This document shows positions 1 to 50,221 of a DNA stretch of 64,000 bases, piece after piece. The notes under the pieces are model-generated. The model saw nothing but the letters and a program-made list of their open reading frames with translations, made no database searches and was not told the DNA's origin. Position 1 is the stretch's first letter. Each line of letters begins with the position of its first letter. Where the stretch lies: the NCBI GenBank assembly GCA_963796685.1, contig CAWCMR010000008.1, positions 704,001-768,000 of the forward strand, read 5' to 3'. Source of the stretch: an uncultured delta proteobacterium (lineage in GTDB: Bacteria; Myxococcota_A; Polyangia; Fen-1088). The translations under genes and the position numbers were made by a program.

Positions 1-220
1 CGATCAGGCGCTGGACCACGCCCGGGAACGGCCGTAGCCCGTCGAAACTGGCCAGGCGCGCGGCAAGGCTGTTCGCCGCGCGAAGATCGGACTCACTAGG
101 GGAGGCGCCATCAAGCCACAGGTCCGTCAACTCCCTGACATCGTCTGGCGCCAGCGACCGCTTTTCCACGTCCCCCTTTTCGGCACGTCAGCCAGAAAGC
201 TTAGCCGCGGGCGGGAAAAA

Positions 221-943
221 TCAGTTCTTCATGACATCGAGATTGTGGCACGCGCTGCTGTCGCCTCCCCGGCACGCCTTGCGGTAGAGATTGGCGGCGC
301 GGGCGTCGTCCTTGGCCAGGCCGCACTGGCCCTTGTTGTAACAAACGCCGAGATTGTTGCACATGCTCGACTCGCCGCCGGCGCACGCCTTCTCGTACAG
401 CATGACGGCGCGCTCGCTGCTCTTCGTCAAGCCGCAGCCGCCGAATTCGTAACACACGCCCAGTTGGCCGCACGCGTTCATGTCGCCACCATCGCAGGCC
501 TTCTCGTACATGTCGAAGCCGCGCTGGCCATCCACGCCAAGACCGCAACCGCCGGTCCAATAACAGCCGCCCAGGCGCGTGCACGCTTCCATGACGCCTG
601 CCTCGCAGGCCTTTCTGTAGTAGACGGCCGCGCGCGGATCGTCGTCCTCGAAATTGGGCAGGGCGCGGTTACCGAGGACGATGATCCTGAAGATACAGAA
701 GATCACGACCACGCCGGACGCAGCCAGGCTCCCGATCTGGAGGGGAAGCTTCATTTCCTTGTCGCGTCGACCGAGCAGCGTCAGTACCACGCACAAGCCG
801 CAGACTCCAACCACGACCAAGCGGGCGATCCGAATCCCGTGCAAGGACCAGATGAGTGGAACGCGACCAAGTGGAAGGAAGCATGCCAACGTTCCAACGA
901 GCGTCACGATCAGGATGGCGAGACGTTGTCTGTGAATGCGCAT
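221..943 (-). CDS. Membrane-anchored Cys-rich Sel1-like repeat protein
   Basis: Three N-terminal hydrophobic helices followed by about 3.5 Sel1 units (e.g. YEKACDGGDMNACGQLGVCYEFGGCG). Confidence 0.85.
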   Translation of the reverse strand: MRIHRQRLAILIVTLVGTLACFLPLGRVPLIWSLHGIRIARLVVVGVCGLCVVLTLLGRRDKEMKLPLQIGSLAASGVVVIFCIFRIIVLGNRALPNFEDDDPRAAVYYRKACEAGVMEACTRLGGCYWTGGCGLGVDGQRGFDMYEKACDGGDMNACGQLGVCYEFGGCGLTKSSERAVMLYEKACAGGESSMCNNLGVCYNKGQCGLAKDDARAANLYRKACRGGDSSACHNLDVMKN

Positions 944-1090
944 ACTGCTCTACGACGGCCAAACAAGCTCGCCACGCGTGGCGAGGCGCGCGACGGTAAG
1001 GATGGCTTCCCCACCGTCCCGCCTTGCATTGGATATCGACGGATCGGTACGGAGCTTGAGCCTGAGGGCTGGCGCGAGCATCCGCCCGGC

Positions 1091-1615
1091 TCAGCTCGGC
1101 AAACGAAACGCGAGCAGCATGCGCACGGTCCAGTAGACGACCCAGCCGCCTAGAAGGACCAGCAGCACCCAAATCCGATGGGGCAGGTGTGGGCTTTGCA
1201 AGAGGTTGGCGCGCATGGCCTCGCGAAAGACAAGCAGCAGAAACAGCAACATTGCGCAGCCGAACCCGACCAGGAAGGACTGCAACCTCTCCGCCGTGCG
1301 TGCCCGGCGTTCGGGGGAAAACCAGTAGTCCTTGTTGGGCAGGTTGATCATACCGGGTGGCAGGCGCACGACGAAGATGGGCGCGAGCCCGAAGAGCAGA
1401 GCCATGAGCCCCAGCACGCCGAGCTGGACGGCGAAGAAGTCGTCCTTGGGCATGAAGGCGTTGGCGTTTCCGCTGGCGTCGAAATGCGAGGCCATGCGCA
1501 CGGGCAAGCGCGGGTAGTACCATGCCATCTGCGCCAGTGTGGCGCCGACCAGCGCCAAGAACACAATCCGAGTCACGGTGAAGAGTCGCCGGGTTGGAAG
1601 ATTCCCTACGGGCAT
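1091..1615 (-). CDS. DUF1648-domain membrane protein
   Basis: YYPRLPVRMASHFDASGNANAF motif typical of DUF1648 plus four TM segments; start placed at the in-frame ATG at 1615. Confidence 0.75.
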   Translation of the reverse strand: MPVGNLPTRRLFTVTRIVFLALVGATLAQMAWYYPRLPVRMASHFDASGNANAFMPKDDFFAVQLGVLGLMALLFGLAPIFVVRLPPGMINLPNKDYWFSPERRARTAERLQSFLVGFGCAMLLFLLLVFREAMRANLLQSPHLPHRIWVLLVLLGGWVVYWTVRMLLAFRLPS

Positions 1616-1649
1616 GTGGAGAGCAGCGTAGCGCGGTCCCGGCTCCTCG

Positions 1650-3278
1650 TCAGCTTTGTTCCGCCCGCTTGAGCTTGCGCCACAGGGTCGCGGTGCTGAT
1701 GCCCAAGATCGCGGCCGCCTGGCGGCGGTTGCCCCCGGTCTGGCGAAGGACATCCTGGATGTGCGCCTCGGCAACCTCGTCGAGCGAGCGTTTGCCTGCG
1801 GATCGCCCAAGTCCTGCCGTGCGATGCACGATGGCCGATGGGAGAAGATCCGGGGTCAGTTGGCCGTCGCGCGAGAGGATGGCCGCGTGCTCGATGGCGT
1901 TCTCGAGCTCGCGCACGTTGCCGGGCCAGGGATAGTTGGTCAGAAGGTTGATGGATTCGGCGGACAGGCGCAGGGCCGGCAGCTTCAGCTTGGTGCGAAA
2001 GCGTTCCACGAAGAACCGCGCCAGGGGCAGGATGTCTTCGCGCCGCTGCCGCAATGGCGGAATGGCGACCTCCACCACGCGCAGACGATAGTAGAGATCC
2101 TCGCGAAAGGTTCCGGCGGTCATGGCAACGGCCAGGTCGCGATTGGTGGCCGCCAACACGCGCACGTTGATGGGACGGTTCTTGCTCTCGCCCACGCGGC
2201 GGATCTCGCGTTCCTGCAGCACGCGCAGCAGCTTGACCTGCGTGGCATGAGAGATCTCGCCGATCTCGTCGAGGAAAAGCGTGCCGCCAGCCGCACTTTC
2301 GAACAACCCCGCGTGATCGGACACCGCGCCGGTGAAGGAGCCCGCTTTGTGGCCGAACAGCTCGGAGTCGAGCAAGCTCTCCGGCAGGGCGCCGCAGTTG
2401 ATGGCCAGAAAGGGCCCCTTGCTTCTGGCCGATCGGCCGTGGATCAAGCGTGCGACCACCTCCTTGCCCACGCCGCTCTCCCCGGTGATGAGCACGGACG
2501 AATCGAAGGGCGCGATGCGCGTTGCCAGCTCGAGCACGCGCGTGAACGCGGGACTTCGGACCTCGACCAGCGGCGGCTTCTCCAGCCGCTCGAGCGTCGA
2601 CAACCGGCGGGTGTTGACCTCAAGCGCGCGGGTGACCTGGCGGAGCTTGTCGGTGAGGGTTCGGATCTTCCCTTTGATGTCGTCGGCGGAAAAGTAGGCC
2701 AGCGGCGCCGCGGGATCGCCGGCCCACGAGGCGACGTCCTTGCCCACGGCCGAGCAGACCCGTCCGCCTTGCGCACGGCAAGTCAGCTCGACGAAGTAGA
2801 TGGAGCGATTGAGGGCATAGGACATGAACCCGCTGGCGTAGCCCGCCAGCATCCAACACACTGGATGCTCGGCCTTGCCCAGATGGGCCACGTGCTCCTC
2901 CGCTTCCCCCGATCCATGCCAGGTCACGTCCATGAAGAAGTGGCCGTCCTTGTCCCCGGTTTCGTCCAGATCGAGGTGCTTGGTCACCCAGCGGGCCACG
3001 CCCTGCATGGCGTGCAGACGCGGTCCGGCCTTCACGAGCTCGAGAGGCTTGCTCCAGGAAAAGACCCGGCGCATGGCCGCCGCGTCCGCCTGGCCCCAGA
3101 AGTAGGCATAGCGGGTGAGAATTCGACGCGCTTGCCTGGCGCCGACCATTTCGTACAGATCCTGGCGAAACTGGGCAAACGCGTCCGTGCTGTGCAGCAC
3201 CAGCCTCCGGCCCTGGAAGTCGATGACGCCATCGCGGAAGGTGAAGAGCTCGTCGAAGCGCAGATCGTCGGCACGCAT
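1650..3278 (-). CDS. Sigma54-dependent enhancer-binding protein, XylR/DmpR family (XylR_N-V4R-AAA+-HTH)
   Basis: V4R motifs ([24 protein letters not shown]), Walker [31 protein letters not shown], Fis-type HTH; start could be 3299/3302. Confidence 0.93.
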
Positions 3279-3282
3279 GAGC

Positions 3283-3317
3283 GTTTCAATATGAAACATC
3301 ACATTTCATTTTGCAAC
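3283..3317. promoter_or_regulatory. Putative tandem upstream activator sites for the divergent bEBP
   Basis: Palindrome GTTTCA-ATA-TGAAAC (3283-3297) and a related copy ATTTCA-TTT-TGCAAC (3303-3317), about 80-110 bp upstream of a sigma54 motif; conspicuously AT-rich. Confidence 0.6.
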
Positions 3318-3393
3318 ACCGGCGACGGGGTTCGCTCCGCGGCATCTCCGACAACCAGGCGTACCGACTGCAGCATCCGGAATCGCACCGCCC

Positions 3394-3409
3394 CGGCATG
3401 GGCCTTGCT
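3394..3409 (+). promoter_or_regulatory. Sigma54 (-24/-12) promoter
   Basis: CGGCATGGGCCTTGCT = GG-N10-GC with TTGC, about 50 bp upstream of the M20 gene and opposite a sigma54 activator gene. Confidence 0.75.
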
Positions 3410-3460
3410 GTACGTCCTTGGCAAAGGCCAGCCGGTGCGCGGCCCACACGAAAGGACCCC

Positions 3461-4678
3461 ATGTACGATCTGCTCAAGAACAAGCTCGAAGGATTGCAAG
3501 GCGAAATGGTCGCGTTCGCCCAGGAACTGCTCAGGACGCGCAGCCGCAGCGGCGACGAAAGCAAGGCCGCGGGACTGGTCGTGGACCAGATGAACGCCCT
3601 TGGCTTCGACCAGGTATCGACCGACGAGCTTGGCAATGTCGTGGGGGTTCTCCACGGCGTCGAAGACGGCCCCACCTTGATGCTCGCCAGCCACATGGAC
3701 ACGGTCGGTACCGGCAATCTTTCCACCTGGGACGAATCGCCTTGGAGCGGACGCATCGAGAGCGGCCGCTTGCACGGTCTCGGCGCCGCGGACTGCAAGG
3801 GGGGACTCGCGGCGCAGGTCTTCGCCGCGGGGCTCATCAAACGCAGTCTTCTGCCGTTGCGCGGAAACCTGGTGGTGGCAGCGACGGTTCTGGAAGAGAA
3901 CGGCATCTCCATCGGCATGCGCGGCTTGCTCAGCCACACGCTCAAGGACATGGGGCTCGTGCCGGCCTACGCCGTGCTCGGCGAACCGACCGATCTCGGG
4001 CTGTACTACGGCCACGACGGCCGCGCCGAGATGGAAATCACGGTGCGCGGGATCAATCCTTTCCGCGTCTCGGACGCGGCCGAGTTGGTTTCGCGCGCGC
4101 TCGACGAGTCCGGCCACGAAGCTGCCGTCGAGGAAATCGCCGTGGGCGAGACGCGCTACGAGGACGGTCCCGGTTTCCGCCAGGCCGTCATCGCCTTGGA
4201 GCGACGCCTGGGCGCGAACGACGAGGTCAACCACCTGGTCGCGCGTATGCGCGGCGAGGCGGTGCGCGCCGCCAGCAGCATCGGCGCCGTGGACGTCGAG
4301 GTCTGCGTGCGCGAGCGCAACGAGGTCATGCCGAGCGGTCTCGTGGTCAACGCGAAACGCGTCACCCAGGCCTGGTCCACCGATCCGTTCAGTCCCCTGC
4401 TCTCACGCGCACGCCAGGCACTGTCCGCGGCGGGTTGCGAGGTTCGGCCGGGGCGCTGGAAGCTGGCCCGCCTGGGCATGGGCACCGCGGGCAGCCTGCT
4501 CGTCAACGAGCACAGCATCCCCACCATCGGCTACGGGCCAGGGCACGAAGAGCAGGCCCACCGCGAGGGCGAATCGGTGGCCATCTCGAAGTTGGTCACC
4601 TGTACCTACGGCACCGCAGCCATCGCGCACGGCCTCGTTGGCATCCCGGTTTTCGGATGGATTCCCGATAGTCTGTAG
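3461..4678 (+). CDS. M20-family metallo-amidohydrolase (ArgE/DapE/YgeY-like)
   Basis: Metal ligand motifs SHMDTV, GAADCKGG, LEEN, GEPT and GPGHEEQAH; RBS AAGGA before ATG 3461. Confidence 0.88.
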   Translation: MYDLLKNKLEGLQGEMVAFAQELLRTRSRSGDESKAAGLVVDQMNALGFDQVSTDELGNVVGVLHGVEDGPTLMLASHMDTVGTGNLSTWDESPWSGRIESGRLHGLGAADCKGGLAAQVFAAGLIKRSLLPLRGNLVVAATVLEENGISIGMRGLLSHTLKDMGLVPAYAVLGEPTDLGLYYGHDGRAEMEITVRGINPFRVSDAAELVSRALDESGHEAAVEEIAVGETRYEDGPGFRQAVIALERRLGANDEVNHLVARMRGEAVRAASSIGAVDVEVCVRERNEVMPSGLVVNAKRVTQAWSTDPFSPLLSRARQALSAAGCEVRPGRWKLARLGMGTAGSLLVNEHSIPTIGYGPGHEEQAHREGESVAISKLVTCTYGTAAIAHGLVGIPVFGWIPDSL

Positions 4679-4692
4679 CCCGCGGAGCAATA

Positions 4693-5916
4693 ATGCGTAT
4701 CATCGTGTTCAACTGCGGAAGCTCGTCGCTGAAGTACCGTCTCATCGACATGCCGAGCGAGACCGAGCTGGCCGCGGGCGAGGCCGAGCGGGTGGGGCCG
4801 AAGACGGCCCTGCCCGGCTGTATTCACCACCAGGTGGGGAGCCGGAAGGAAGACCACCCCCTGGACATGCCCGATCACGGCGCGGCCTTTTCCGCGGTGA
4901 TGAAATTGCTGGAGCGGGACTCGCGCCTCTTGCCCGAGGCCATCGGGCACCGCATGGTGCACGGCGGGGCCATCTTCAAGGGCCACGTGGTCGTCGACGA
5001 CGAGGCCTTCCATCATCTGGAGGAGGTTCAGGATCTCGCGCCCATTCACAACCCACCCGCCCTGCGCCTCTTGGCGGCGTGCCGGCAGCTCTATCCCAAG
5101 CTGCCCGAGACCGTGGTCTTCGATACCGCCTTTCACTCGACGCTTTCGCCCGCGGCGCGCACCTACGCCCTGCCCACCGAGCTGGCACGTCGCCACGGAT
5201 ATCGCAAGTACGGGTTCCACGGCACGAGCCATCAGTACGTGGCGCAAGAGGCAGCGAAGTTCCTCGGCATCCCCATGTCCGAGCTGCGCGCCGTGAGCTG
5301 CCACCTGGGCAGCGGCGGCGCCAGCCTGTGCGCCATCGTGGGCGGCAAGTCCGTCGACAACACCATGGGCTACTCGCCGCTGCAGGGGTTGGTCATGAGC
5401 ACGCGCTCGGGCGATCTGGATCCCGCCATTGCCCTCGGCCTGGTGGCGCGCGCGCAAGGCGACAGTCAATCGGTGGAGAGCATGCTCAACCGCAAGAGCG
5501 GCCTGCTCGGATTGACCGGCGTGTCCGCCGATATTCGCGATTTGGTGTCGGGCGACAGAACTGCGGATGGCACGGAACAAGGCCTGGCTCTCTCGCGCGC
5601 GGCCCAGGTCTATCTGTGGCGAATCCGCAAATACCTCGGCGCCTATCTGGTTGTCACCGAGCGTCCCCACTGCATCATCTTCACCGATACCATCGGCGAG
5701 AAGATGCCCTACGTGCGCTGGGCGGTGACCGCGGGACTCGACAAATTGGGCGTGGTGCTGGACCCGCTCAGAAACGCGGAATCACCGCCCTTGCCCGCGG
5801 ATCTGGCGGCGCGCCGAAGTCGCGTGCGCATCCTGGCCATCGCCACCAACGAAGAAGTCGCCATTGCCCGCGCCAGTTACGCTCTCCTGGCCAATCCAGA
5901 AAGGTTGCCGTCATGA
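4693..5916 (+). CDS. ackA: Acetate/propionate kinase
   Basis: NCGSSSLK, GHRMVHGG, APIHNP, FDTAFH, GFHGTSH, TRSGDLDP and TNEE all present. Confidence 0.9.
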   Translation: MRIIVFNCGSSSLKYRLIDMPSETELAAGEAERVGPKTALPGCIHHQVGSRKEDHPLDMPDHGAAFSAVMKLLERDSRLLPEAIGHRMVHGGAIFKGHVVVDDEAFHHLEEVQDLAPIHNPPALRLLAACRQLYPKLPETVVFDTAFHSTLSPAARTYALPTELARRHGYRKYGFHGTSHQYVAQEAAKFLGIPMSELRAVSCHLGSGGASLCAIVGGKSVDNTMGYSPLQGLVMSTRSGDLDPAIALGLVARAQGDSQSVESMLNRKSGLLGLTGVSADIRDLVSGDRTADGTEQGLALSRAAQVYLWRIRKYLGAYLVVTERPHCIIFTDTIGEKMPYVRWAVTAGLDKLGVVLDPLRNAESPPLPADLAARRSRVRILAIATNEEVAIARASYALLANPERLPS

Positions 5917-6995
5917 ATTCGCTCGTCCTGCTTCCCGGAAAGTCCGGCCTGCGCTACTCGCGGGTTTGTCTCGACCGCATTTGTACATGCGAAGACTCCA
6001 CTGCCTTGACCGAGGGCCTGCGTGGCACCACCGCCTCGGTGGGGGATCTCCAAGCCGTGCTCGCCGCCGCCCACGACGATCGCCCCATCGACGTGCTGAC
6101 CATCCGCGCGGTCTTCGGCGGAAGCGACTTCTCGTCGCCCATCATCGTCGACGACAAGAACCAATCGCAGCTCCTGCGTCTGGGCTCGCAATCTCCCATG
6201 TCCGTGGCCAACACCTCATCCCTGGTCATGGAAACGCGGGTCGCCTTCCCCGAGATCCCCATCGCCCTGGCGTTCGAGACCTCGTTCTTCGTCGATCTAC
6301 CCCACCGAGAGACGACCTATGCGCTCCCGGCCGGTGCGGGCCTGAGCGTTCGTCGCTGGGGCTACCACGGCCTGTTTCACGATGCGGCGACCGGCCAACT
6401 TGCGCGAACCCTTGGCCACGAGAAATGGCCTGCGCGCATGCTCTCGATCTGCCTCGATTCCCAACCTGAAATGGCCGCCGTGCTCGGGCGCACCCCACTG
6501 ACCGTCACCAGCGGCAGCACACCGCTGGAAGGACTGCCGGGCGAATTCAACTGTGGCGAGATCGATCCCTCGATTGCCCTGGCACTGGCAACCGATCCGG
6601 CCCTTGGGCCCGAACGCGCCAACCTCGTGCTCACGCGCGAAAGCGGTTTTCTGGGGATGCTGGGTTGGCCGGCGACGCTTGGCGAGGTACTGACCGAGAA
6701 GCGCGCCCGGGTCGCCCGTGTGCGGGAGCACCTGCTTTACCACATGACCCTTGCCGCGGGATCGAGCCTGGCCGCGCTCGAGGGACTCGATGGTGTGGTC
6801 TTCTCGGGCCGCTACGCCGAGCACGGAGGCAAGGTCGCCAGCTACCTCGTGCCCCGCCTGGAACGGGCTCTCGACCTGGCGGCGGGTTCGTTGCCCTGGC
6901 ACATCTGCGCGACGCCCCTCGATGCCATTGTGGCAGAAGCCGGCATCTCGGCGCTCATCGCAAGTGGCAAGGCCCACACGACTGACCTGCAATAG
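5913..6995 (+). CDS. Degenerate acetate-kinase-like protein (probable pseudokinase)
   Basis: Colinear with AckA (IRAVFGG, AFETSFF, WGYHGLFH, TPLEGLPGEFNCGEIDP, ESGFLG, VFSG) but several catalytic residues are replaced; ATGA overlap with ackA. Confidence 0.8.
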   Translation: MNSLVLLPGKSGLRYSRVCLDRICTCEDSTALTEGLRGTTASVGDLQAVLAAAHDDRPIDVLTIRAVFGGSDFSSPIIVDDKNQSQLLRLGSQSPMSVANTSSLVMETRVAFPEIPIALAFETSFFVDLPHRETTYALPAGAGLSVRRWGYHGLFHDAATGQLARTLGHEKWPARMLSICLDSQPEMAAVLGRTPLTVTSGSTPLEGLPGEFNCGEIDPSIALALATDPALGPERANLVLTRESGFLGMLGWPATLGEVLTEKRARVARVREHLLYHMTLAAGSSLAALEGLDGVVFSGRYAEHGGKVASYLVPRLERALDLAAGSLPWHICATPLDAIVAEAGISALIASGKAHTTDLQ

Positions 6996-7031
6996 CACCC
7001 GAGCCGCCATAATCCCGCGACAGCCGCAGAA

Positions 7032-7066
7032 GGCCGTGGCCGTGGCCGTGGCCGTGCAGGCCGTGG
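7032..7066. repeat. Short GGCCGT hexamer tandem repeat
   Basis: GGCCGT x4 plus one further copy in the intergenic region between convergent genes. Confidence 0.7.
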
Positions 7067-7105
7067 CTCGCGCTATTGGCAAATGGAACCGACGGTCGGG
7101 TGCTC

Positions 7106-7129
7106 GACGTCGGCCCTTCGGCTGACGTC
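7106..7129. terminator. Possible stem-loop terminator between convergent genes
   Basis: GACGTCGGCC-CTTC-GGCTGACGTC hairpin; no long U tract. Confidence 0.4.
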
Positions 7130-10100
7130 AGCCCTTTCGTCGGCGCTTCCGCGCCAGCAGCAGTGCAACCCCCGCGACGAGGAATGGCACGGTCGAGGCC
7201 GCATCCGCGGGCTTGGCCTGCCCGACCTCGCAGCTGCAACCTGACTTGTGCAGGTTCGCGTTCGCGCCTGCGTCGCCCACGCCGCCGTCACGATTGCCGC
7301 TGGCGCCGCCAAGGCCAAGGATGCTGCCGCCGGCGCCGCCCAGGCTCGAGCTGTTCCCCCCACGACCTCCTGTATTCGCAAGACCGCCGTCGTTGCCACC
7401 GCCGATCCCGCCCGAATTGGGAAGGCTGCCCCCGTCGTTTGAACCTCCGCTGCCGCCGCGGCCGAGCGTCGAAGCACCACCCGCGCCGCCGGCATTGGGA
7501 AGAGAGCCATCAGCGCCGCCGAAGTTACCGTCGGGATAGCGGGCCACGTCCACGGTGCCAAAGCCGCCATCGGGATAGCGGGGCGGATCCACCGCGATGC
7601 CGCCAACCTCGGGATAGGAGTACCCGCCGTCCGGGCCCGCGATCCCGCAATAGTAGTCGTAGTTCGAGCAGGTGCCGAAGCCATCGCAGGTGTAGCACGT
7701 GCCACACGTCACCGCGGTTTGGGGATAGGCGCAGTTCCCCACGCCGTCGCAGGTGGACTTGCACACACCGGTGCCGACGCCGCATTCACCCTGCGGATCG
7801 GTGCCCGCCGGGTATGGGCTGCACTTGCCCACCTGCCCCGCCAGGTTGCAGGACGAGCAGGTCCCCGTACACGCGCTGTCGCAGCACACGCCGTCCGCGC
7901 AATTGCCAGAAGCGCACTCGGCCGCGCTGGTGCACACCTGGCCGTTCTTGGTCTTGCAGGCTCCGGCGCCGTCGCAAGATTGGCCGCTCGAACAGCTGCC
8001 CGCCACCTCGGTCCCGGCCTTGACTAGAACACAGGTGCCTTCGGAACCGGCCACGTTGCACGACTTGCACGCGCCCGAGCACGCGGCCTCGTCGCAACAC
8101 ACGCCGTCCACGCAATTGCCGGAGGCACAGGAGGTCGCGAACGAAGCGTTGCACCCCTCGCCATTGCCCAGGCTGCTCACCCTGTATTCCCAGGTCTCGC
8201 TGGTGATGGAGCTGCTGGTCATGCTCTGACCGCCGAACAGGACCACCACGCCGCGGGCGCTGTCGAAAGCCAGGGTGCCGCCGTATTGGTTGCCGGGCGA
8301 CCCGGGCAGGGGGCGCACGTACCAAGTCGGCCCCTTGGCGTCGAGCTCCCAGGTTTCTTGGTAGCCCATGTTCGGACTGTAGGCATCGGTGAGAAGGACC
8401 TCGCGCCTGCGGATGGAATCGTACGCGACGAGATCGTAGTACCCGTAGTCGAGGGAGTCACCGGTGTCGAGCAAGCTCCAGCCCGCGGAAACCGGATCCC
8501 ACTCCCAGAACGCGCTCAAGCTGGTGCCGTAGGTTGCCCCATCGTACAAGAACATCTTCTGCCGGCCTTCGTCGTACGCCAGGATGGGGTTCGAACGAGC
8601 GGTGGGCGCCATCGCGGAAGCGGGCGGCGTTCGATTGGTCCAGGTCAGGGCGGCGCCGTCCCACTCCCAGACCTCGTTGCGCATGGGATTCTTGTAGGAG
8701 GTCCCCGGCCCCGCGTAATAGTAGTCGCTGATGCCCGCGAAGAGCAGGATCTTGTTGCGGACCGTGTCGGTCACCATGCCGGGGCCATAGAGCGGGTCCG
8801 GACTGCTCGAGGGATTGAGCTGCGTCCATTTTCGGGTGCTGCTCCCCCATTCCCAGGTATCGCCGACCGTCCCCATGGAGCCATTGCCGCCGTAAAGGAT
8901 CAGCGACTTCCGCGCCGGATCGTACGCAAGGGCCGCTTGCGTTCGGGCAGAGGGCCGCACGTCCGCGGGCACTTGCACCCAAACCTTGCCATCCCACTCC
9001 CAGAGATCGTCGAGATACTGCCCGTAGGTCGCATCGGAGCCGCCATAGACGTAGGTCTTTCCCGTCGAAGGGTTGTAGGCCATGGCCTGGCTGAAGCGGG
9101 CAGAAGGCACATCGAGGGGCGGCGTGCGGTCGGCGAACGCCGGCGTGGCTGGATCGAGCTCCCACACGTCCCGCGAACCGGCGCCACCACCACCCATACC
9201 GGGCGGTCGGATCTTGATCCCGGCATCCGCCATCCCGTACGAGCCGTACGGCGCCACACCGGCCACCAACTCCATCCGCGCATCCGCGTCGTCCGCGACC
9301 AAGGAGGCGTACATGCGAGGCGAAGGCACGCCGCTCTCGCTTCCGGTCAGCCGCTCGGTCCAGACACCGGTCGTGGGCTCCCACTCCCAAAGATCGTTCA
9401 GGCTTCCACCGCTGCCGATGTCCCACCCGCCGAAGACCATGACTTTCTTGCGGTTGCCGTCGAAGGCCATGGCGTGGGCATAGCGCTGGCTCGGTTTTGT
9501 GCCTGAGGCGGTTCGTTCGGTCCAAGTCGCGGCCGCGGGATCCCACTCCCAGGTGTCCTGCTTGGGAACGCCCGCTGCATTGGCGAGATCGGTTTGCATA
9601 CCCGCGAAAAGCACGGCCTTGTTCCGCGAGGAATCCCACACCAGGCCGAAGTCGTGCCGGCCCGAAGGCGTGCTGGTCACCGTCAGCTCCGTCCAGGTAT
9701 GCGCGGCCGGGTCATACTCCCACGTGTCACCGAGAGAAACCGTGATTCCGGTCCCATCGTAGGAAGCCGAGTCGCTGCGACCGCCACCGAAGAGCAGAGT
9801 CTTGCCCGTGGACTTCTCGTACACCATGCCGTGTTGGCTGCGCGCAGAGGGATGAGCACCGGCCGCGCTGACGTCGGCCCACGCGCCCGTCGCCGGATCC
9901 CACTCCCACGTATCCTCATAGTCGAAGGCACTGCCGGCTCGGCCGCCGAAGAGCACGAGCTTGCCGCGAGCGGAGTCGAACACCATGGCCGCGCCCGAAC
10001 GCGCTTGCGGTGCAGCGCCGGCACCGGTTCGATTGGTCCACTTCCCCGTCGCAGGGCTCCATTCCCAGGTCTCTTGGTTGGGCGTCACCCCTCCCGTGCT

Positions 10101-40936: not shown

Positions 40937-42344
40937 ATGCCACGGCCAGCGACCCACGAAACCCTCGACCGATTGAAGACGCTCGTCGGCCCGGCCGGGT
41001 TTTCCGTCGACAGCGACGAGCTTGCGCCCCACCTTGTCGAATGGCGCAACCGTTTCGTGGGCAAGACGCCGCTCTTGCTCAAGCCGGCATCGACGGAAGA
41101 GGTCGCCGCCATCGTGCGCATCTGCGCCGACGCCGAGGTGGGCATCGTGGCGCAAGGTGGAAACACGGGCCTCGTGGGCGGGCAAATCCCTCGTCCCGAG
41201 GGCGCCGATCTCCTGCTCAGCATGGGCCGCATGAACAAGATCCGCTCGGTCGATGCCGTCGACGACACCATGGTGGTCGAGGCCGGCTGCACCCTGGCCG
41301 TGGCGCAAGAGGCAGCGACCGACGTCGACCGGCTGTTGCCGCTCAGCCTGGCCGCCGAGGGCACGAGCCAGGTCGGCGGCAACCTCTCCACCAACGCGGG
41401 GGGAATCCACGTGCTTCGCTACGGCAACGCCCGCGATTGCGTGCTCGGTCTCGAGGTCGTGACCGCGGACGGCCAGATCTGGAATGGTCTGCGAGCGCTG
41501 CGCAAGGACAATACGGGTTACGACTTGAAACAGCTCTTCGTGGGCGCGGAGGGCACGCTCGGCATCATCACCGCCGCGGTGCTGAAGCTGTCCCCCCGCC
41601 CGCGCCAAATCGAAACCATCCTGGCCGGCACATCGGATCCCGACAAAGTGCTCGGGTTACTCACGCTGGCGCGGGAGCTGACGGGCGATGCCGTCTTCGC
41701 CTTCGAGATGATTTCGCGCTTTGCCCTCGATCTGGTCCTGCGCCACATCCCGGGAACGTCCGACCCGCTGGCCGCACACACGCCGTGGTACGTGCTCACG
41801 GATCTCACGGTTGGGCGCGAGGTGGCCGAGACATTCCTGGCCGCAGCAATGGAACGAGGCCTGATCGAAGACGCAGTCCTGGCCGGGAAGCTCGGCACAA
41901 GCCCAGGCCCTGTGGAAGTTGCGCGAGTCGATCTCGGAATCGCAGAAGCACGAAGGGGGCAGCATCAAGCACGACATCTCCGTGCCGGTGTCGCACATCC
42001 CGGCCTTCATGCGCGAGGCCCTGGCTGCTGCCGAAAAGCTGATCCCCGGCGTCCGCCCCGTGCCCTTCGGCCACGTGGGCGACGGCAACCTGCACTTCAA
42101 CTTCACCCAGCCGACGGACATGGACAAGGACGCCTATCTCCAGAAGTGGGCGGCCCTGAACCGCGTGGTGCACGATATCGTGGTCGCCCACGACGGCTCC
42201 ATCAGCGCCGAGCACGGCATCGGCGTGCTCAAGCGCGAGGAGGCCCGCCGCCGCAAGAACCCAGTCGAGCTGGACCTGCTTCGTCGAATCAAGCAAGCCC
42301 TGGATCCCAAGGGCATCATGAATCCCGGCAAAGGGGTCGTGTAG
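40937..42344 (+). CDS. FAD-linked oxidase (D-2-hydroxyacid dehydrogenase/GlcD family), frameshift near 41887
   Basis: QGGNTGLVGG, STNAGG, LRKDNTGYDL, GAEGTLGI; then KHDISVP, GHVGDGNLH, SAEHGIG, MNPGK in the shifted frame. Confidence 0.9.
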
Positions 42345-44339: not shown

Positions 44340-45299
44340 ATGCCCAGCAAGACCCCAACCACCATCCCGGAGGATCGCCTGACCGAGGCCCTGAGTCCCG
44401 CCGACGATTCAGGCCTGCGCGCGCTACCCAAGGCGGATGTGCACTGCCACGCCCTTCTCAACTGCCCGCTTTCGACCTACGAACGCGTCCTCCGGCATAA
44501 ATTGCCCGCGCCCCCCATACGCTTTCGCAATTTCGGCGAATTCGGCGGCTACCTTGCGGCGAACATGTTCCCCGCCATTTGCAGTCTGGACGGTATTCGC
44601 ACCCTGCTGCGCGCCGGGCTCGAACGCATGGCCGGCGAAGGCGTGGTCTACGCCGAGGCCAGCGTCGACCTGCTCTTGCCCTCGCACATCCACGCCCCCG
44701 CGCAAGCCGTGCTCGAGGTCATCGCCGAGGAACGCGACCGAGTCTCCGGCCAAGTGCGCTTCGTGCCCGAGATCGGCATCAACCGTCGCGTAGCACCCGA
44801 TCGCCTGTGGCCGCTCTTCGTCGCCTACCTCGACTCGGGCGTCTTCGGCGGCATCGACCTCTACGATGACGAGCGCGCCGGCAATCTGCGCGAGTTTCAG
44901 CGCTTCTTCCGCCTCGCGCGCGAACGCGGGCTCGCGCTCAAGTCCCACGCGGGAGAGACCTGCGGTCCCGAACGCGTGCGCGAGACCATCGAAACCCTGG
45001 ACGTGGACGCCATCCAGCACGGAATCGCCGCCGTTCAAGACCCTTCACTTTTGGAAGAGCTGGCGCGGCGGGGAACCCAGCTCAATCTGTGTATGGCCAG
45101 CAACATCGCGCTGGGCGTGGCCGGATCGTATGAGGATCATCCCATTCACGCGCTGCTGGCCGCGGGCGTGAACGTCGCCCTTGGCACCGACGATTTCGCC
45201 ATATTCGGCGCCAGCCTGTCGGACGAAATCCGCCGCCTGCGACGTTCGGGCATGCGCCTGCGCGACCTGGCGAAGGTGCGCCTCGGCCCACCGGCGTAA
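44340..45299 (+). CDS. Adenosine/adenine deaminase family protein
   Basis: LPKADVHCH, HAGE, QHG, SN, GTDD. Confidence 0.88.
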   Translation: MPSKTPTTIPEDRLTEALSPADDSGLRALPKADVHCHALLNCPLSTYERVLRHKLPAPPIRFRNFGEFGGYLAANMFPAICSLDGIRTLLRAGLERMAGEGVVYAEASVDLLLPSHIHAPAQAVLEVIAEERDRVSGQVRFVPEIGINRRVAPDRLWPLFVAYLDSGVFGGIDLYDDERAGNLREFQRFFRLARERGLALKSHAGETCGPERVRETIETLDVDAIQHGIAAVQDPSLLEELARRGTQLNLCMASNIALGVAGSYEDHPIHALLAAGVNVALGTDDFAIFGASLSDEIRRLRRSGMRLRDLAKVRLGPPA

Positions 45300-45314
45300 C
45301 CTGGGCTGCGGTCG

Positions 45315-46040
45315 CTAGTCGCCCGACAGGTCTTCGCTCTTGTCCGCCGTGGACGAGAATCGGTAGCCGATGCCGCGCACGGTCTCCACGTAGGCCCCGG
45401 CAAAGCCCAGCTTCTCCCGCAAGCGCTTGATGTGGGTGTCCACGGTGCGCGTGTTGTTCTCCGGGCTCGCTTCCCAGACGTCGTCGAGCAGCACGCTGCG
45501 CGTCTGGACCCGTCCACGGCGCTGGTAGAGCGTCCACAGCAGCTTCATTTCGAGCGGTGTGAGGGTGATCTCCTCGCCGTCCACCCAGGTCCGATGCGCG
45601 CTTCGGTCCACGCGCAAACGGCCGAACACCAGCCCGTCCTCCGGCTCTGGATTGACCCCAAGGGCGGCACCGCGCGCGCGCCTCAAGACTGCCTGCACGC
45701 GCAGAATCAGCTCCCTTACGCTGAAGGGTTTGACGACGTAGTCATCGGCCCCCAATTCGAAACCCACCACGCGATCGATCTCCTCACTGCGGGCGGTCAG
45801 CATCATGACCGGAACCTCGCGCAGAGTCGGGTCGCTCTTGAGCTGGCGGCAGACCTCCAATCCCGAAATATCCGGCAGCATCAGGTCGAGAAGCACCAGC
45901 TCCGGACGCTCCTTTCGCGCCAAGTCGAGTCCTGTGGCGCCCCGATCGGCGACGAGCACCTCATGCCCGGCTTGACCGAGGTTGTAGGCAAGGATCTGAC
46001 GAATGTCTTCTTCGTCTTCGACGACCAGGATACGTGACAT
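45315..46040 (-). CDS. OmpR/PhoB-family response regulator
   Basis: VVEDE, LLDLMLP, GADDYVVKPF, RTVDTHIKRLREKL, TVRGIGY. Confidence 0.95.
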   Translation of the reverse strand: MSRILVVEDEEDIRQILAYNLGQAGHEVLVADRGATGLDLARKERPELVLLDLMLPDISGLEVCRQLKSDPTLREVPVMMLTARSEEIDRVVGFELGADDYVVKPFSVRELILRVQAVLRRARGAALGVNPEPEDGLVFGRLRVDRSAHRTWVDGEEITLTPLEMKLLWTLYQRRGRVQTRSVLLDDVWEASPENNTRTVDTHIKRLREKLGFAGAYVETVRGIGYRFSSTADKSEDLSGD

Positions 46041-46127
46041 GGCCCGTACCTTTTACACCCCAATCCGCCCTACGGGCAGGGGGGACAGCGAGCGATGGCT
46101 GCCAAGGTGCGGCGTCCCCGGCGCCGT

Positions 46128-46520
46128 TCACGGAAGACCGAGAATCCAATTGGCGATGGTCTGGTACTCGAGACTGTCGGTGGCAAACCGTTGTCCGCCG
46201 GTATGGCCGTCGCCGGTGGCCTTCATCAGCAACCTGCTGTCGCCGGGATTCCCCGGAGTCACCAGGGCCACGACCATGGCGCGATCCGAGCCGGCGTTGC
46301 CCGTGAGGACGAAGCTCGTGTTCGATGCCGCGCCGCCCGCAGAATGACAATATCCGCAGTCGAGCTCGAGGATGGGATACACCAACTTCTCGAACGCGAG
46401 ATCCTCGATCTCCGAGTCGGCTGTCCCCCCGTCGCGCGGCGCGGGCCCGCGATGGAAATCGGCGCAGCCCACGCTGGCCAACACGGCGGCCGTCAGTGCG
46501 AAAAGCAACCTAGAACGCAT
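46128..46520 (-). CDS. Lipoprotein with one c-type heme motif
   Basis: Lipobox ASVGC; CGYCH; PGDSRLLMKA...HTGG supplies a candidate distal His. Confidence 0.75.
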   Translation of the reverse strand: MRSRLLFALTAAVLASVGCADFHRGPAPRDGGTADSEIEDLAFEKLVYPILELDCGYCHSAGGAASNTSFVLTGNAGSDRAMVVALVTPGNPGDSRLLMKATGDGHTGGQRFATDSLEYQTIANWILGLP

Positions 46521-47705
46521 AGGTCACCGTCAAGCGCAGGAGATCGTCCGGACGTTCGTCGACCTTCTCGAAGTTCCAAAAGTAGGCCAGGCTGACTTGC
46601 GCGCCCGCATATTCGGCCACCAACGCCAGGTTGTGGTGCGAACCGTCGTTCGCGTTGGCATAGCGTGCGTCGTAGAAGAGCCCCGCGCGGTTGTCGAAGG
46701 TCGCCAAGCCGCTGCGCGCCTGCAGGTAGAGCCAATCGCCCAGGTAGGCGCGCAGCCAGACGTAGTCGGCGAAGTGAAAGTACGCACCGGCTCCTGCCAC
46801 GGCATCGGGCCGACCGTAGCTCTCGTCGGCCGAGACGTGGGCGCGCACGGCCCCGAGGCCCACGGCCAATCGATTCAGGATGGGCCAATCAGGGCGCCAC
46901 ACGGTGAGGTCCACGGCCTGCATGACGAGCTGGCGGCCGAATCGCATCGGGTTCCAATACAGCGAATACCACAGCGTGAACGGACCGCTGGAAAGCGCCA
47001 GCCGGTTGCCCACCGCCACCCGCGCACCGTCGTAGGCAAACAGGTCGCGCTGCATGTCGAGGGTTTGGTCGCGCGCGGGAAGGTCGAAGCCCTGCGCCGT
47101 GTAGATTTCGTCGCTCGCGGACAGCCGACGCCACACCAGGGCGAAACGCACGCCGCCGCCGATGGCCGACCAAACCACGGGCAGCGTCCTCTGATCCACG
47201 CCGCTCAGTCCACCGTAACTCTTGTGAAACAGCGGATCCGGCCCGAAAGGCACCAAGATCTTGCCTGCGTGGGCGGACACGCGCACGGTCGAGCCCTTGC
47301 CCGAGAGTCGCGTGGTCAGCTCGTAGAAATAGAGCCCCAGCAGCTCGGCGTTGAACCCCACGGGCACGTCCTCGCCTTGGCGGGACAGAAACAGAAAGTG
47401 GTGGTAGCTCTGAAACGCGTTGTGCCCGCTGCCGAGCTCCCCGACCTGCCCGCACGCTCATAGACCGCATCGAACATGCCACCGAGGCGGATGCCACCCG
47501 GCAGGACGAAGGCTTGGCCTCCGTGCTCTTCGGCTTCCTCGTTCGGCGGTGCAGTGGCCGGCGCGGCCGGCGGCGAAGTCGCGTTGGCGGATGGGCCTTC
47601 TCCTGGACTGTCTGCGGCGTCCCCCTCGTCGGACGCGGCCAAGGACGGCAGCGCCGCCGCGGTCACGACGAGGAAGACAAGCGTGCGAATGACGACCCCT
47701 CTCAT
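46510..47705 (-). CDS. Outer-membrane beta-barrel protein, frameshift in a G-run near 47440
   Basis: Signal peptide, alternating amphipathic strands, AGKILVPFG, C-terminal LRLTVTYAF; the frames join if TCGGGGAG has one more G. Confidence 0.72.
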
Positions 47706-48043
47706 TTCGCGTGACACGAAGATTTGCAGGTGGCGCGCGCACCGCTGGTCGGCGGCGCCGTCCGGCCGTCATGACAAGCGCCGCAGAACTTGCCCTCGTC
47801 CATCTGGTCGTGGGTGAATCCGACGCGGGCGCGGGGGAACAATGCCGGGTGACAGGTGACACAAAGGTATTGGTCGTGCTGCCAGTGCGAAAACAGGCCC
47901 GGCGCGGGCGGATCGGCCTTGCCGTGCTCCCTGACGACGGGAACGCGCACCTCTGCCGGCACAGCCAGCACCGAGGCCGAGGCGAGGACAAGCACGCCCG
48001 GCAGAAGGAAGGCGAGCCACCTGTTCCACGTCTTCGTTGCCAT
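47702..48043 (-). CDS. c7-type triheme cytochrome c
   Basis: Signal peptide, FSHxxH, CVTCH, FTH, CGACHDG, CKSSCH. Confidence 0.85.
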   Translation of the reverse strand: MATKTWNRWLAFLLPGVLVLASASVLAVPAEVRVPVVREHGKADPPAPGLFSHWQHDQYLCVTCHPALFPRARVGFTHDQMDEGKFCGACHDGRTAPPTSGARATCKSSCHAK

Positions 48044-48200
48044 GATGGATGCCGACCCCGATGAGACCTCAGCTTGCCTTCACCGCCGTCGACGACGCGG
48101 TCGCTGTCGACACCGCCGCCAGCACGGACGTCATCTTGACCCCCATGCTCCCACGAAGGGCAGGGTTAGCGGTTCTCACCATCATCATCTCCGGCTTGTT

Positions 48201-48216
48201 CGTGAAGTCTGTCACA
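48201..48216. promoter_or_regulatory. CRP/FNR-family-like binding site
   Basis: CGTGA-N6-TCACA, 9/10 match to TGTGA-N6-TCACA, about 160 bp upstream of the c7 gene. Confidence 0.35.
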
Positions 48217-48300
48217 GCGAGGAAGACAGCATTGTCGGATGTCTCGGTGCCAAAGTCGACCGTCTTCCACATTGCCGGGTGCTTAACAGAAAATGAGGCA

Positions 48301-48537
48301 TCTAAGGAAGTCAGGAATGGGTGGTATGGCCGTTGGGAGGCAATGACACCCTTGATTTCGAGCGTCGGCTTGGTGAGGGCGTTCTCGGAGACCACCTCCA
48401 GAATCCCGGTTCAGGTGCCTTGTAGACCTCGATCACAGCGCCGATGACACTGCCGGTTGGGTCCCCATGCTCGAGATTTGCTTGTCCTGTTGGGTGCTGC
48501 GGGGTTTCTTTCTTCCTGCTTTCCTGGCTTCCTCAGA
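48301..48537 (-). mobile_element. Decayed GxxExxY element with 17-bp imperfect terminal inverted repeats
   Basis: Minus-strand relic LEHGDPTGSVIGAVIEVYKAPEPGF/LEVVSENAL fused to KPTLEIKGVI; arms TCTAAGGAAGTCAGGAA and TTCCTGGCTTCCTCAGA (15/17 complementary). Confidence 0.65.
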
Positions 48538-48615
48538 GGTTATCGAATCGAGGTCGCGTCGCCCACGTGCCCCGGTCGCGGCTTGGCCCTGGCGGGGTTG
48601 ACTCCCATCGAAACT

Positions 48616-48647
48616 GAAGCCTGCCCCACCGAAGTGAGGCAGGCTTC
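48616..48647 (-). terminator. Strong hairpin with cUUCGg tetraloop downstream of GH6
   Basis: GAAGCCTGCCTCAC-TTCG-GTGGGGCAGGCTTC followed by AGTTT on the minus strand. Confidence 0.7.
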
Positions 48648-48736
48648 CCTTACCCAAGCCCGACGAGGCGAGGAGAGATTTGGCGTATTTGCTCCGTCAG
48701 GCTCTTTCCGACCTTACCCGGACGCTCTTGCTCCCC

Positions 48737-49906
48737 TTACAACCCCGGCCTGGCGTTGTGGACCAGATCCATGAAGTAGGCTTCGAACCACTTGCCTGCC
48801 TGCGGGGCACCCTTGGCCGCGTCGGGGCCGGCACACATGGCGTCGAAGCGCGGACCATTCGGGTCAGACGAGCCATCGGATTCTCCCGGTGGTTTGACCC
48901 AGTAATAGGCGTCGATGCCAGGCGCGGGATCGGCGCGCGGGCGCTCACCCAAGCCCGCGCCATGGACGTTGCACCAGCTCCCCCACTTTTCCCGGATGCC
49001 GCCCTTGCCGTTGCGTGAGGTATCGATGATGAACCCGTGGTCCTTGAAGCCGTACATGGACAGCATTTCGCCCAGCATCTTGGCGTAGGTCAGCTCGTTC
49101 GGACACGGGTTGGAGGGCTCGAGCGCGGCGCCGTCGCGGTTCGACAAGTGGGTGTAGTTCGAGGTGTTGATGGCGAAGCCGCGAATCATCTGCGGGCCGC
49201 CGGCCTCGCTGAGCACAGTTCTGAACACCTTCGCGATCTTGGCGCGGTTGTCGTCCCAGCCCAGCCAGCCCGAGTGCGCGGCATCGAGATAGACGCTCAC
49301 GTTGGGTAGGTGGAAGCTCTTGATGGCGTAGACGATGCCGTCCTTGTACACGGACTTGGCCCGCTGGCACTTTGGTAGGCTCATATTGGTGGCCAGGTTG
49401 CCGAGCGAGTCCGGTTCCAGAACCACCGCAATGGGCTGATCCGCGTGGGCCTTGAGCTGGGCGGTGATGGGATCGATGAATTCCGTGCGGTAGCGGGCCT
49501 CGCCGTTTTCTTCGACCTTGAGCTCGCCGGCCGACGATTCGGCCGCACAGTCGCGGTTGGGCAAGTCGTAGACCACGATGACGGTCATGGTCGGCACGCC
49601 GCTCGCGTCCTGTTGCTTCTTGGCCTCGTCGAGCCAGCCCTTCAGATTCTCGACAGCCTTGATGTCGGAGAGCCACACGCCCGTCGGATAGGTCGCGACC
49701 TTGCGGATGGTTTCCGCCTCGTCCGGATGTTTGGCCGCGGTGGCCTCGACGGAGGCGGTGTACTCGGGGTTGAGGAAGAAGCGGACGTGCTTGAAGGGAT
49801 TGCCACCGCCCGTCTTGACCTCATTTTGGGGAGAGCCGATGCTCCCCATACCGCCGGCACAGGCGGCCAAGGAGAGTGCCGAAGCAAGAACTGCAAAGTG
49901 ACGCAT
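48737..49906 (-). CDS. Glycoside hydrolase family 6 cellulase, lipoprotein
   Basis: Lipobox LAAC; VYDLPNRDC, LEPDSL, YLDAAHSGWLGW, IDTSRNG, WVKPPGESDG. Confidence 0.95.
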   Translation of the reverse strand: MRHFAVLASALSLAACAGGMGSIGSPQNEVKTGGGNPFKHVRFFLNPEYTASVEATAAKHPDEAETIRKVATYPTGVWLSDIKAVENLKGWLDEAKKQQDASGVPTMTVIVVYDLPNRDCAAESSAGELKVEENGEARYRTEFIDPITAQLKAHADQPIAVVLEPDSLGNLATNMSLPKCQRAKSVYKDGIVYAIKSFHLPNVSVYLDAAHSGWLGWDDNRAKIAKVFRTVLSEAGGPQMIRGFAINTSNYTHLSNRDGAALEPSNPCPNELTYAKMLGEMLSMYGFKDHGFIIDTSRNGKGGIREKWGSWCNVHGAGLGERPRADPAPGIDAYYWVKPPGESDGSSDPNGPRFDAMCAGPDAAKGAPQAGKWFEAYFMDLVHNARPGL

Positions 49907-49961
49907 GAGAGGCCTCCTAAAGGGTCCGTGTCTTGTGTGAACCCAACAGGCAACTTCCCTC

Positions 49962-49977
49962 AGCAAGGCGCGTACCA
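49962..49977 (-). promoter_or_regulatory. Sigma54 promoter for the GH6 gene
   Basis: Minus strand TGGTACGCGCCTTGCT = GG-N10-GC, about 55 bp upstream of the ATG. Confidence 0.7.
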
Positions 49978-50221
49978 ATCCCGGCAACCCCGTCCCGGCG
50001 CCATTGCCAATGGGATTCGGCAGTCCTTGACGCCTCCGCCTCCTGTGTCCGGACGTCCGCGGACGTCCGCGGTCAAGGGGCTCGTCATCGAGGCGGTCTC
50101 CGCAAGGGCAAGGTTGCCTGCCAGCGGGTAGCTCGTCGCCTCTCATCCGATCGCCGCACGCCGCGCGGCGATCAGGCTCTTTCGGGGCCCGTTCCCGGGG
50201 CACGGACCCCCAAGAGAGAAA

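Follow-up and report, generated by a model that had tools for sequence, protein, structure and literature searches.

A conserved porin-cytochrome gene cassette in Myxococcota with a compact heme complement

A 64-kb stretch of DNA from an uncultured delta proteobacterium of the class Polyangia (the window) carries at positions 46128-48043, on the minus strand, a cassette of three genes for a c7-type triheme cytochrome, a beta-barrel porin, and a monoheme lipoprotein cytochrome. The source genome is a 26-contig assembly that is 88.6% complete. Myxococcota from soil, fens, and the rhizosphere carry the same cassette, cultured Corallococcus among them. It belongs to the porin-cytochrome kind and lies outside the Mtr and Pcc systems and, as far as tested, outside Cyc2. 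From structure models and by analogy, we favor, with a probability of about 0.5, a compact conserved outer-membrane redox module that would combine a Cyc2-like mechanism with a Pcc-like layout, a small solute meeting an anchored heme at the pore. A previous sequence-only reading of this DNA had proposed a miniature, possibly undescribed system that might serve in trans-membrane electron transfer or metal uptake. Neither the trio nor the fused myxobacterial proteins reported below were found described in the literature searched (full text).

The features of the cassette and the gene that follows it, with the evidence for each, are as follows.

47702..48043, minus strand: c7-type triheme cytochrome, periplasmic, 113 amino acids (aa) (open reading frame [ORF], PF14522, TIGR04257, 31-orthologue alignment)
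47443..47705, minus strand: N-terminal part of the porin, with signal peptide, Pro/Ala-rich linker, and first strand ...GGIRLGGMFDAVYERAGRSG (frame translation, barrel-family profile match, start of homologue P0002)
47439..47442, minus strand: frameshift site, four G against GGGNG (five bases) in relatives (frame translation, P0002, relatives' contigs)
46510..47438, minus strand: C-terminal part of the porin, about 310 aa, ending ...LLRLTVTYAF plus stop (P0001, homologues, fold of the intact homologue)
46128..46520, minus strand: monoheme lipoprotein cytochrome, 130 aa (ORF, 73 homologues, alignment, structure model)
45315..46040, minus strand: OmpR/PhoB-type response regulator, 88 nucleotides (nt) downstream of the lipoprotein gene (PF00072 plus PF00486)

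The trio and its three proteins

The ORF list and translations place the three genes in the order c7, barrel, and lipoprotein, with overlapping starts and stops. The barrel ATG at 47705 lies inside the c7 stop (AAATGA), an overlap of 4 nt, and the lipoprotein start precedes the barrel stop, an overlap of 11 nt. A co-oriented overlapping trio followed by a regulator had been read from the sequence, and all four genes were found in those places on the minus strand.

We examined the conservation of the trio in three sets of loci. Among 21 loci on genome contigs that carry the barrel (tblastn), c7 lies upstream in 21/21 and the lipoprotein downstream in 19/21. Of the two loci without the lipoprotein, the contig of L014 ends 54 nt past the barrel, and L020 has none at E ≤ 1e-3. 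These 21 loci include non-myxobacterial records, namely, a Calescibacterium metagenome-assembled genome and unclassified bacteria. We also sampled 400 further genomes from the phylum of the window. At least 10 (a lower bound) carry the barrel, and 8 of these have the full trio on one contig; the trio is split over two contigs in G364, and G354 has the barrel and lipoprotein with no c7 within 11 kb. The third set comprised 80 metagenome loci, retrieved with fused relatives of the barrel as the query. Here, c7 is present in 49 loci, and in all 31 others the barrel domain starts no more than 1381 nt from the locus start; the lipoprotein follows in 72 loci, and in the other 8 the downstream flank does not exceed 288 nt. 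The three genes travel together wherever the flanks allow, apart from L020 and G354. Because the order recurs in related loci with enough flank, it is more than chance, and the conservation on which the earlier proposal depended was seen alike in the genome, phylum-sample, and metagenome loci. The barrel family is nonetheless small, as its profile found only 153 relatives (E ≤ 0.001) among 1.84 billion cluster representatives.

The first protein has a signal peptide ending ...SVLA/VP and, in the mature protein, three c-type heme motifs, CVTCH, CGACH, and CKSSCH, the last being a CX3CH site; the family norm is about 70-90 residues. It exceeded the cut-offs of Pfam PF14522, Cytochrome_C7 (E 1.4e-10, 41.2 bits, cut-off 24.8), and of NCBIfam TIGR04257, the c7-type triheme domain (46.5 bits, cut-off 40), which bears out the periplasmic triheme cytochrome with one CX3CH site that had been called from the sequence. 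All three heme motifs and an F[SP]HxxH motif are kept in 31/31 aligned orthologues; as to the third site, the window and loci L001-L017 have CX3CH, and distant orthologues have CXXCH. The likeness to PpcA-type c7 and TIGR04257 proteins thus consists of the exceeded cut-offs, the three heme sites, and the FxHxxH motif, whereas what sets the protein apart is the CX3CH third site (window and L001-L017), a VPxxVRVPxV segment conserved at the N terminus, and the dedication of the gene to a porin operon. Just 5' of the c7 gene, a stretch at 48069-48395 (minus strand) is partly conserved in the genome loci nearest to the window, L001 (4453-4536) and L002 (4437-4616), with tblastn E values of 2e-6 and 4e-9, respectively. 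It had no Pfam, NCBIfam, or Rfam match and could be either a short ORF or regulatory DNA.

The barrel gene is split by a frameshift in the window, and its product was therefore assessed with an intact homologue, P0002 (397 aa), which is 94% identical to the two window halves and begins MRRVV... at the equivalent ATG. The N-terminal part covers positions 4-115 of the barrel-family profile, and 154 homologues, the majority 390-420 aa long, were retrieved with the C-terminal part (P0001) as the query (E ≤ 1e-3). The expectation of a protein of about 400 aa ending in Phe and masked by a frameshift agrees with a length of about 397 aa, the ending ...LTVTYAF, and a one-base deletion. Neither half matched any Pfam family at E ≤ 1, Porin_O_P (PF07396) included, or any NCBIfam model, and CXXCH is absent from both. 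The fold was modeled on P0002 with AlphaFold2 and 29 homologues, giving a barrel of about 16 strands with a mean predicted local distance difference test score (pLDDT) of 66.6 and a predicted template modeling score of 0.66. This model matched solved 16-strand porins in Foldseek, with E down to 9e-8. In VIA-align, the top match was OprP (2o4v_A; Z 21.5, root mean square deviation [rmsd] 3.4 Å over 284 residues), followed by OprO (4rjw; Z 21.4), PorB (21.4), and OmpF (about 20). The model and these Z scores of 20-21.5 uphold the assignment of the middle protein as a beta-barrel, and on the modeled fold it is a 16-strand-class OprP/OprO-like porin. The closest named ESM Atlas clusters are Porin_O_P, alginate-export-like, and LbtU family siderophore porin. 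The family is highly conserved, with 62% mean column identity over 29 sequences and many invariant Arg, Asp, His, Tyr, and Trp residues. Its most conserved stretch, VPFGPDPLFH.SYGG, sits in a low-confidence part of the model at the position of the inward loop of 16-strand porins.

The third protein has a lipobox, LASVG-C19 (read by eye), whose Cys is nearly invariant (at least 90% of 33 aligned homologues), and a single heme motif, CGYCH, at residues 55-59, and so it is the monoheme lipoprotein that the sequence had suggested. In the alignment of its homologues (n = 73 in total), CxxCH is invariant, and a nearly invariant H-x-G-G is the only candidate sixth ligand. CADFHRGP is conserved directly after the lipidated Cys and is followed by a linker of about 25 residues. 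The structure model has a pLDDT of >90 over residues 41-134 and forms a four-helix heme domain, with no Foldseek match in the PDB at E ≤ 0.001. The window protein had no Pfam match at E ≤ 1; neither it nor the barrel is covered by a Pfam or NCBIfam model, and the source names are "hypothetical." A search of the lipoprotein profile against PDB sequences returned only the N-terminal helix and CXXCH of PccH (E 0.025). Below threshold, PSCyt1 (PF07635) matched 20/33 members (best E 0.001), and PccH (PF22297) matched 7/33 (best E 4.8e-4). The monoheme/diheme cytochromes PccH (PDB 4RLR) and FoxE (PDB 5MAB), together with PSCyt1, are the best though weak structure and profile neighbors of the heme domain, all under family thresholds (Z 4.3 and 5.7; Pfam bits below gathering); the protein described here differs in being a lipoprotein with H-x-G-G as the sole candidate sixth ligand. 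On the basis of the model, it is a divergent class-I-like monoheme cytochrome. In loci L097 (5028, 5457) and L098 (5064, 5652), two lipoprotein-like heme-domain matches lie 3' of an unfused barrel, representing either tandem paralogues or a diheme protein.

Heme-barrel fusions and the favored mechanism

Some relatives of the window barrel are fused to heme domains. In the product of the L019 barrel gene, a signal peptide is followed by a pair of heme domains (CRGCH...GHKGG and CSGCH...THAGG) and then by the barrel. Homologues of this longer kind comprise 37 proteins of 697-824 aa, including proteins of Corallococcus exiguus and C. macrosporus, with the source names "hypothetical" or "cytochrome c domain-containing." Cluster representatives with a length of 330 aa or more number 85; two CXXCH motifs are present in 24, one in 4, and none in 57, so that 28/85 are fused. 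By hhalign, homology with the lipoprotein holds for the fused domain (98.9%, E 3e-17) and also for that of a single-heme fusion, P0349 (413 aa; 96%, E 4e-9). Of the c7-bearing metagenome loci (n = 49), 28 encode a barrel with two fused domains, 8 a barrel with one, and 13 an unfused barrel; irrespective of fusion, the separate lipoprotein is present in every one of these loci with sufficient downstream flank. In a quick tree of 80 barrel domains, diheme fusions fall mainly in one clade and P0349 in a distant one; fragmentary metagenome proteins blur the number of fusion events. Because the heme domain is fused to the N terminus of the barrel in these relatives, it appears to be physically tied to the pore, a link that the natural fusions support at the level of sequence.

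The closest mechanistic parallel is Cyc2, the fused cytochrome-porin of Fe(II)-oxidizing bacteria. In the excerpts of Keffer et al. (2021; PMC8406198) on which we draw, Cyc2 is modeled as a 16-strand porin on OprO/OprP templates (4RJW and 2O4V), and its cytochrome is argued to plug the periplasmic side of the pore, so that Fe2+ must enter the pore. The cassette would share with Cyc2, as portrayed in those excerpts, the 16-strand OprO/OprP-like fold, the templates being the top structural matches of the barrel described here, and the placement of a single c-type heme domain on the periplasm-facing side of the pore. In addition, relatives of the window barrel are fused to one (P0349) or two heme domains, and a periplasmic cytochrome is the presumed partner in both systems. 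This likeness is one of fold, templates, and presumed heme-domain placement. The two systems also differ. Cyc2 is a cytochrome-porin in one polypeptide, whereas the window encodes a separate lipoprotein, and a one-polypeptide form occurs in the fused third of the full-length representatives (28/85). The heme domain here is modeled as a complete class-I fold, PSCyt1/PccH-like and about 90 aa in size, with long linkers, a c7 triheme gene lies upstream, and the fused forms also keep the lipoprotein.

A Cyc2-like mechanism is favored because the barrel is of the same structural class as the Cyc2 porin, with the same templates, and because the N-terminal fusion would place the heme domains in the periplasm. 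With a periplasmic porin N terminus, the heme domains would be positioned at the periplasmic entrance of the pore, the arrangement proposed for Cyc2. There, a small solute with redox activity that has entered the pore would exchange electrons with the heme; candidates are Fe(II), chelated Fe(III), and a quinone- or humic-type shuttle. Electron transport between this site and the remaining chain would fall to the c7 cytochrome; in the extended clusters of distant relatives, the chain may include a NapC/NirT-type quinol dehydrogenase as a link to the quinone pool. The proposal covers electron flow in either direction (reduction or oxidation).

Several observations weigh against the pore mechanism. 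The barrel model is of moderate quality only (mean pLDDT 66.6), and its FGPDPLFH...YGG loop (residues ~152-171) has a pLDDT below 50. The likeness of the lipoprotein to FoxE (5mab_A; Z 5.7, rmsd 2.8 Å over 79 residues) and PccH (4rlr_A; Z 4.3), found in a wide VIA search, is weak. The separate lipoprotein is kept even where the barrel carries two fused domains (28/49 c7-bearing metagenome loci), which fits a location out of the reach of the fusion, e.g., the cell surface. Finally, 10-heme extracellular-type cytochromes with immunoglobulin (Ig)-like (Big_2) domains flank the cassette in two distant genomes, L019 (6174-8771) and L035 (~5600-7638, plus strand), indicating that electrons may reach the surface, which a model of diffusion into the pore would not need.

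The sequence-only reading had likened the layout to MtrABC and the Geobacter Pcc conduits. The order of the trio is indeed that of Pcc, but the barrel has about 16 strands rather than the 26 of MtrB. As presented in extracts of PMC4282303, PMC4245776, and PMC6148476, the Geobacter Pcc (OmbB-OmaB-OmcB) and Ext systems comprise the same trio of a periplasmic cytochrome, a porin-like protein, and an outer-membrane lipoprotein cytochrome, and Pcc has 8-heme periplasmic and 12-heme outer-membrane cytochromes, compared to 3 and 1 hemes here. The barrel described here is also smaller and of the general/specific porin class, with no sequence relation to the Pcc porin detected (no Pfam or NCBIfam match). 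The MtrCAB, MtoAB, and PioAB systems embody the same concept, a porin with cytochromes reaching from the periplasm to the outer membrane, and NapC/NirT (CymA-like) partners occur in some extended clusters of the cassette. However, a conduit of the MtrCAB type uses a 26-strand MtrB/PioB-type porin with a decaheme periplasmic cytochrome and a decaheme lipoprotein, and the cassette has about 16 strands, 3 plus 1 hemes, and no decaheme cytochrome of its own. In MtrB, the 26-strand barrel holds decaheme MtrA inside, according to the excerpts of PMC8406198. An MtrB-like barrel was considered for the middle protein and ruled out by the lack of any Pfam match at E ≤ 1 and by the structural matches to 16-strand porins. 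The phosphate-selective porins OprP and OprO are the best fold matches (Z 21.5 and 21.4), and many charged residues are conserved here; this likeness is one of fold and language-model features only, as PF07396 was unmatched at E ≤ 1, and the linkage to cytochrome genes is obligatory here.

The frameshift and alternative explanations

The barrel frame switches between ...YERAGRSG (in the frame of 47316-47717) and ELGSGHNAF... (in the frame of 46510-47448), and intact homologues read ...ERAGRSGELGSGHN... across the site (P0002). At the Gly codon of the break, relatives have TCG GGN GAG, with one base more than the TCGGGGAG of the window, which is therefore one base short at 47439-47442. Five public DNA sequencing runs were found with small word shares (0.05-0.08), and no RNA run was listed; four runs yielded contigs of relatives only (at most ~96% identical), which have one extra base at 47439-47442. 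A second split gene in the window encodes a flavin adenine dinucleotide (FAD)-linked oxidase (41075-42341, plus strand), with a shift near 41882-41890 (~41885) that separates FAD_binding_4, read in the 40928.. frame, from FAD-oxidase_C, read in that of 41865-42341. The contexts of the two shifts are nearly alike, GGGAAGCTCGGCA in the oxidase and GGGGAGCTCGGCA in the barrel, with the common core GGG[G/A]AGCTCGGCA. The motif AGCTCGGCA alone was rejected as a frameshift mark, since two further copies (at 1093 and 28519) lie in unbroken sequence and only GGG[G/A]AGCTCGGCA is common to both shifts. The near-identical context points to a systematic assembly or base-calling error, which may lie behind both frameshifts.

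Should the deletion be real, the porin would be a recent pseudogene and the trio would be without function in the organism of the window, whatever it does elsewhere. We consider this possible but somewhat unlikely. The deletion is present in the assembled sequence, and no contradicting read set of the organism itself was found in the public runs. However, it is a lone lesion, with no second one seen in the barrel gene and both flanking genes intact, both barrel halves are 94% identical to the intact homologue, the deleted base lies within a G-run, and the oxidase gene is frameshifted (~41885) in nearly the same GGG[G/A]AGCTCGGCA context. From these sequence data, an assembly or base-calling error is probably the cause of the porin deletion, by about 2:1 over a real pseudogene.

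Rather unlikely, in our view, is a true miniature conduit of the Mtr/Pcc type, with the lipoprotein on the cell surface and electrons passing through the barrel. The gene layout equals those of OmaB-OmbB-OmcB and MtrA-B-C, and N-terminal fusions never replace the lipoprotein, whose CADFHRGP segment is conserved after the lipidated Cys ahead of the ~25-residue linker. The barrel is also unusually conserved, with its many invariant Tyr, Trp, His, Arg, and Asp residues, and 10-heme Ig-domain cytochromes (L019 and L035) and NapC/NirT proteins (L018, L019, and L035) adjoin the cassette. Electrons could cross if part of the cytochrome or its linker were inserted in the lumen or if the invariant aromatic residues helped. 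Against this stand the 16-strand barrel with an L3-like inward loop and the dimensions of such porins, which would leave no room for a heme domain of ~90 residues. A single heme at either face is too little to bridge a membrane-spanning barrel by tunneling, and no export route for the lipoprotein was identified. A heme wire through a barrel of about 16 strands is unlikely, judging from the model. In its most specific form, a minimal trans-outer-membrane conduit would have four hemes (six when fused) and a 16-strand porin, with the lipoprotein heme outside, the c7 or fused hemes inside, and the lumen bridged either by a segment inserted into it or by the aromatic and His residues that are invariant. 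We regard this form as doubtful; if true, it would be a third architecture beside Mtr/Pcc (a heme wire in a wide barrel) and Cyc2 (a single fused heme), present in cultured aerobic myxobacteria such as Corallococcus.

Least probable is a device for metal acquisition or detoxification, in which the porin would admit chelated Fe(III), another metal, or an oxyanion and the c7-fed anchored heme would shift its redox state for uptake or exclusion; the cassette does usually stand alone, without energy-conserving partners, in Polyangia loci L001-L017, its carriers include Corallococcus, a genus of aerobic predators, its closest named Atlas clusters include the LbtU family siderophore porin and phosphate-selective porins, and its family is sparse and patchy (at least 10/400 phylum genomes and 153 clusters in 1.84 billion representatives), but none of the inspected loci showed a Feo gene, TonB receptor, or Fur box beside the cassette, those clusters that are extended by NapC/NirT and 10-heme cytochromes have a respiratory look, and the PhoB-like neighbor is not conserved with the cassette.

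Porin-cytochrome systems couple Gram-negative metabolism to iron, humics, minerals, and electrodes, and those studied have either large many-heme barrels (Mtr and Pcc) or one fused heme (Cyc2). As a redox module at the pore, the cassette would be a modular middle ground, in which the same 16-strand porin is paired either with a monoheme lipoprotein encoded on its own or with fused domains, one or two in number, together with a dedicated c7 cytochrome. Marker-gene surveys of iron cycling that are built on the known systems would be expected to miss the family. If redox exchange with iron or humics is indeed its role, such chemistry would extend to abundant soil predators and cellulose degraders. 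Since cultured Corallococcus strains are among the carriers, the function is open to genetic testing.

Neighboring genes and extended clusters

The regulator that follows the lipoprotein gene has REC (PF00072) and Trans_reg_C (PF00486) domains and scored 239.7 bits against TIGR02154 (PhoB), below the cut-off of 296. It had been described as an orphan OmpR/PhoB regulator that follows the trio. The gene is present and no kinase gene is adjacent to it, but it lies outside the conserved cassette, as its synteny is confined to the closest relatives, L001, L109, L110, and L114 (the latter three with one gene between). A PhoB-like regulator was accordingly ruled out as a cassette member. An Rfam search of 45000-49000 gave no match at E ≤ 1, a sigma-70 promoter scan found no site, and terminator-like sites were at chance level.

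In the Polyangia loci, the window included, no further cytochromes were found nearby. NapC/NirT-type tetraheme cytochromes adjoin the cassette in L018, L019, and L035, and between the lipoprotein and NapC/NirT genes, L018 (6347-6871) and L035 (3582-4001) encode one more class-I monoheme cytochrome (PF00034). The 10-heme gene of L035 is divergent from the barrel gene and stands in place of c7. ORFs with at least three heme motifs occur at the same locus-edge place in L024, L029, L030, and L034, as judged by a heme-motif count. In L021, from an uncultured bacterium, the cassette lies directly 3' of a cluster (170-4604) encoding an unclassified molybdopterin oxidoreductase (945 aa), a 4Fe-4S subunit with a best match, below the cut-off, to ArrB-like proteins, and a chaperone of the NarJ/type II dimethyl sulfoxide reductase type. 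We take this arrangement to recall the DmsEFAB-type extracellular reductases.

In a Myxococcales subclade, a PAS hybrid histidine kinase and a REC-HD domain regulator precede the cassette (L005, 1162-4658), and a hemerythrin/DUF2249 protein is encoded after it on the opposite strand (6772-7497). The same setting was seen, judged by receiver-domain match, in L006, L009-L014, and L017. Directly upstream of the cassette in the window is a co-oriented gene for a cellulase-type glycoside hydrolase of family 6 (48740-50203, minus strand; PF01341, E 1e-104). It is separated from the cassette by ~690 nt of DNA with a lower G+C content (58-59%).

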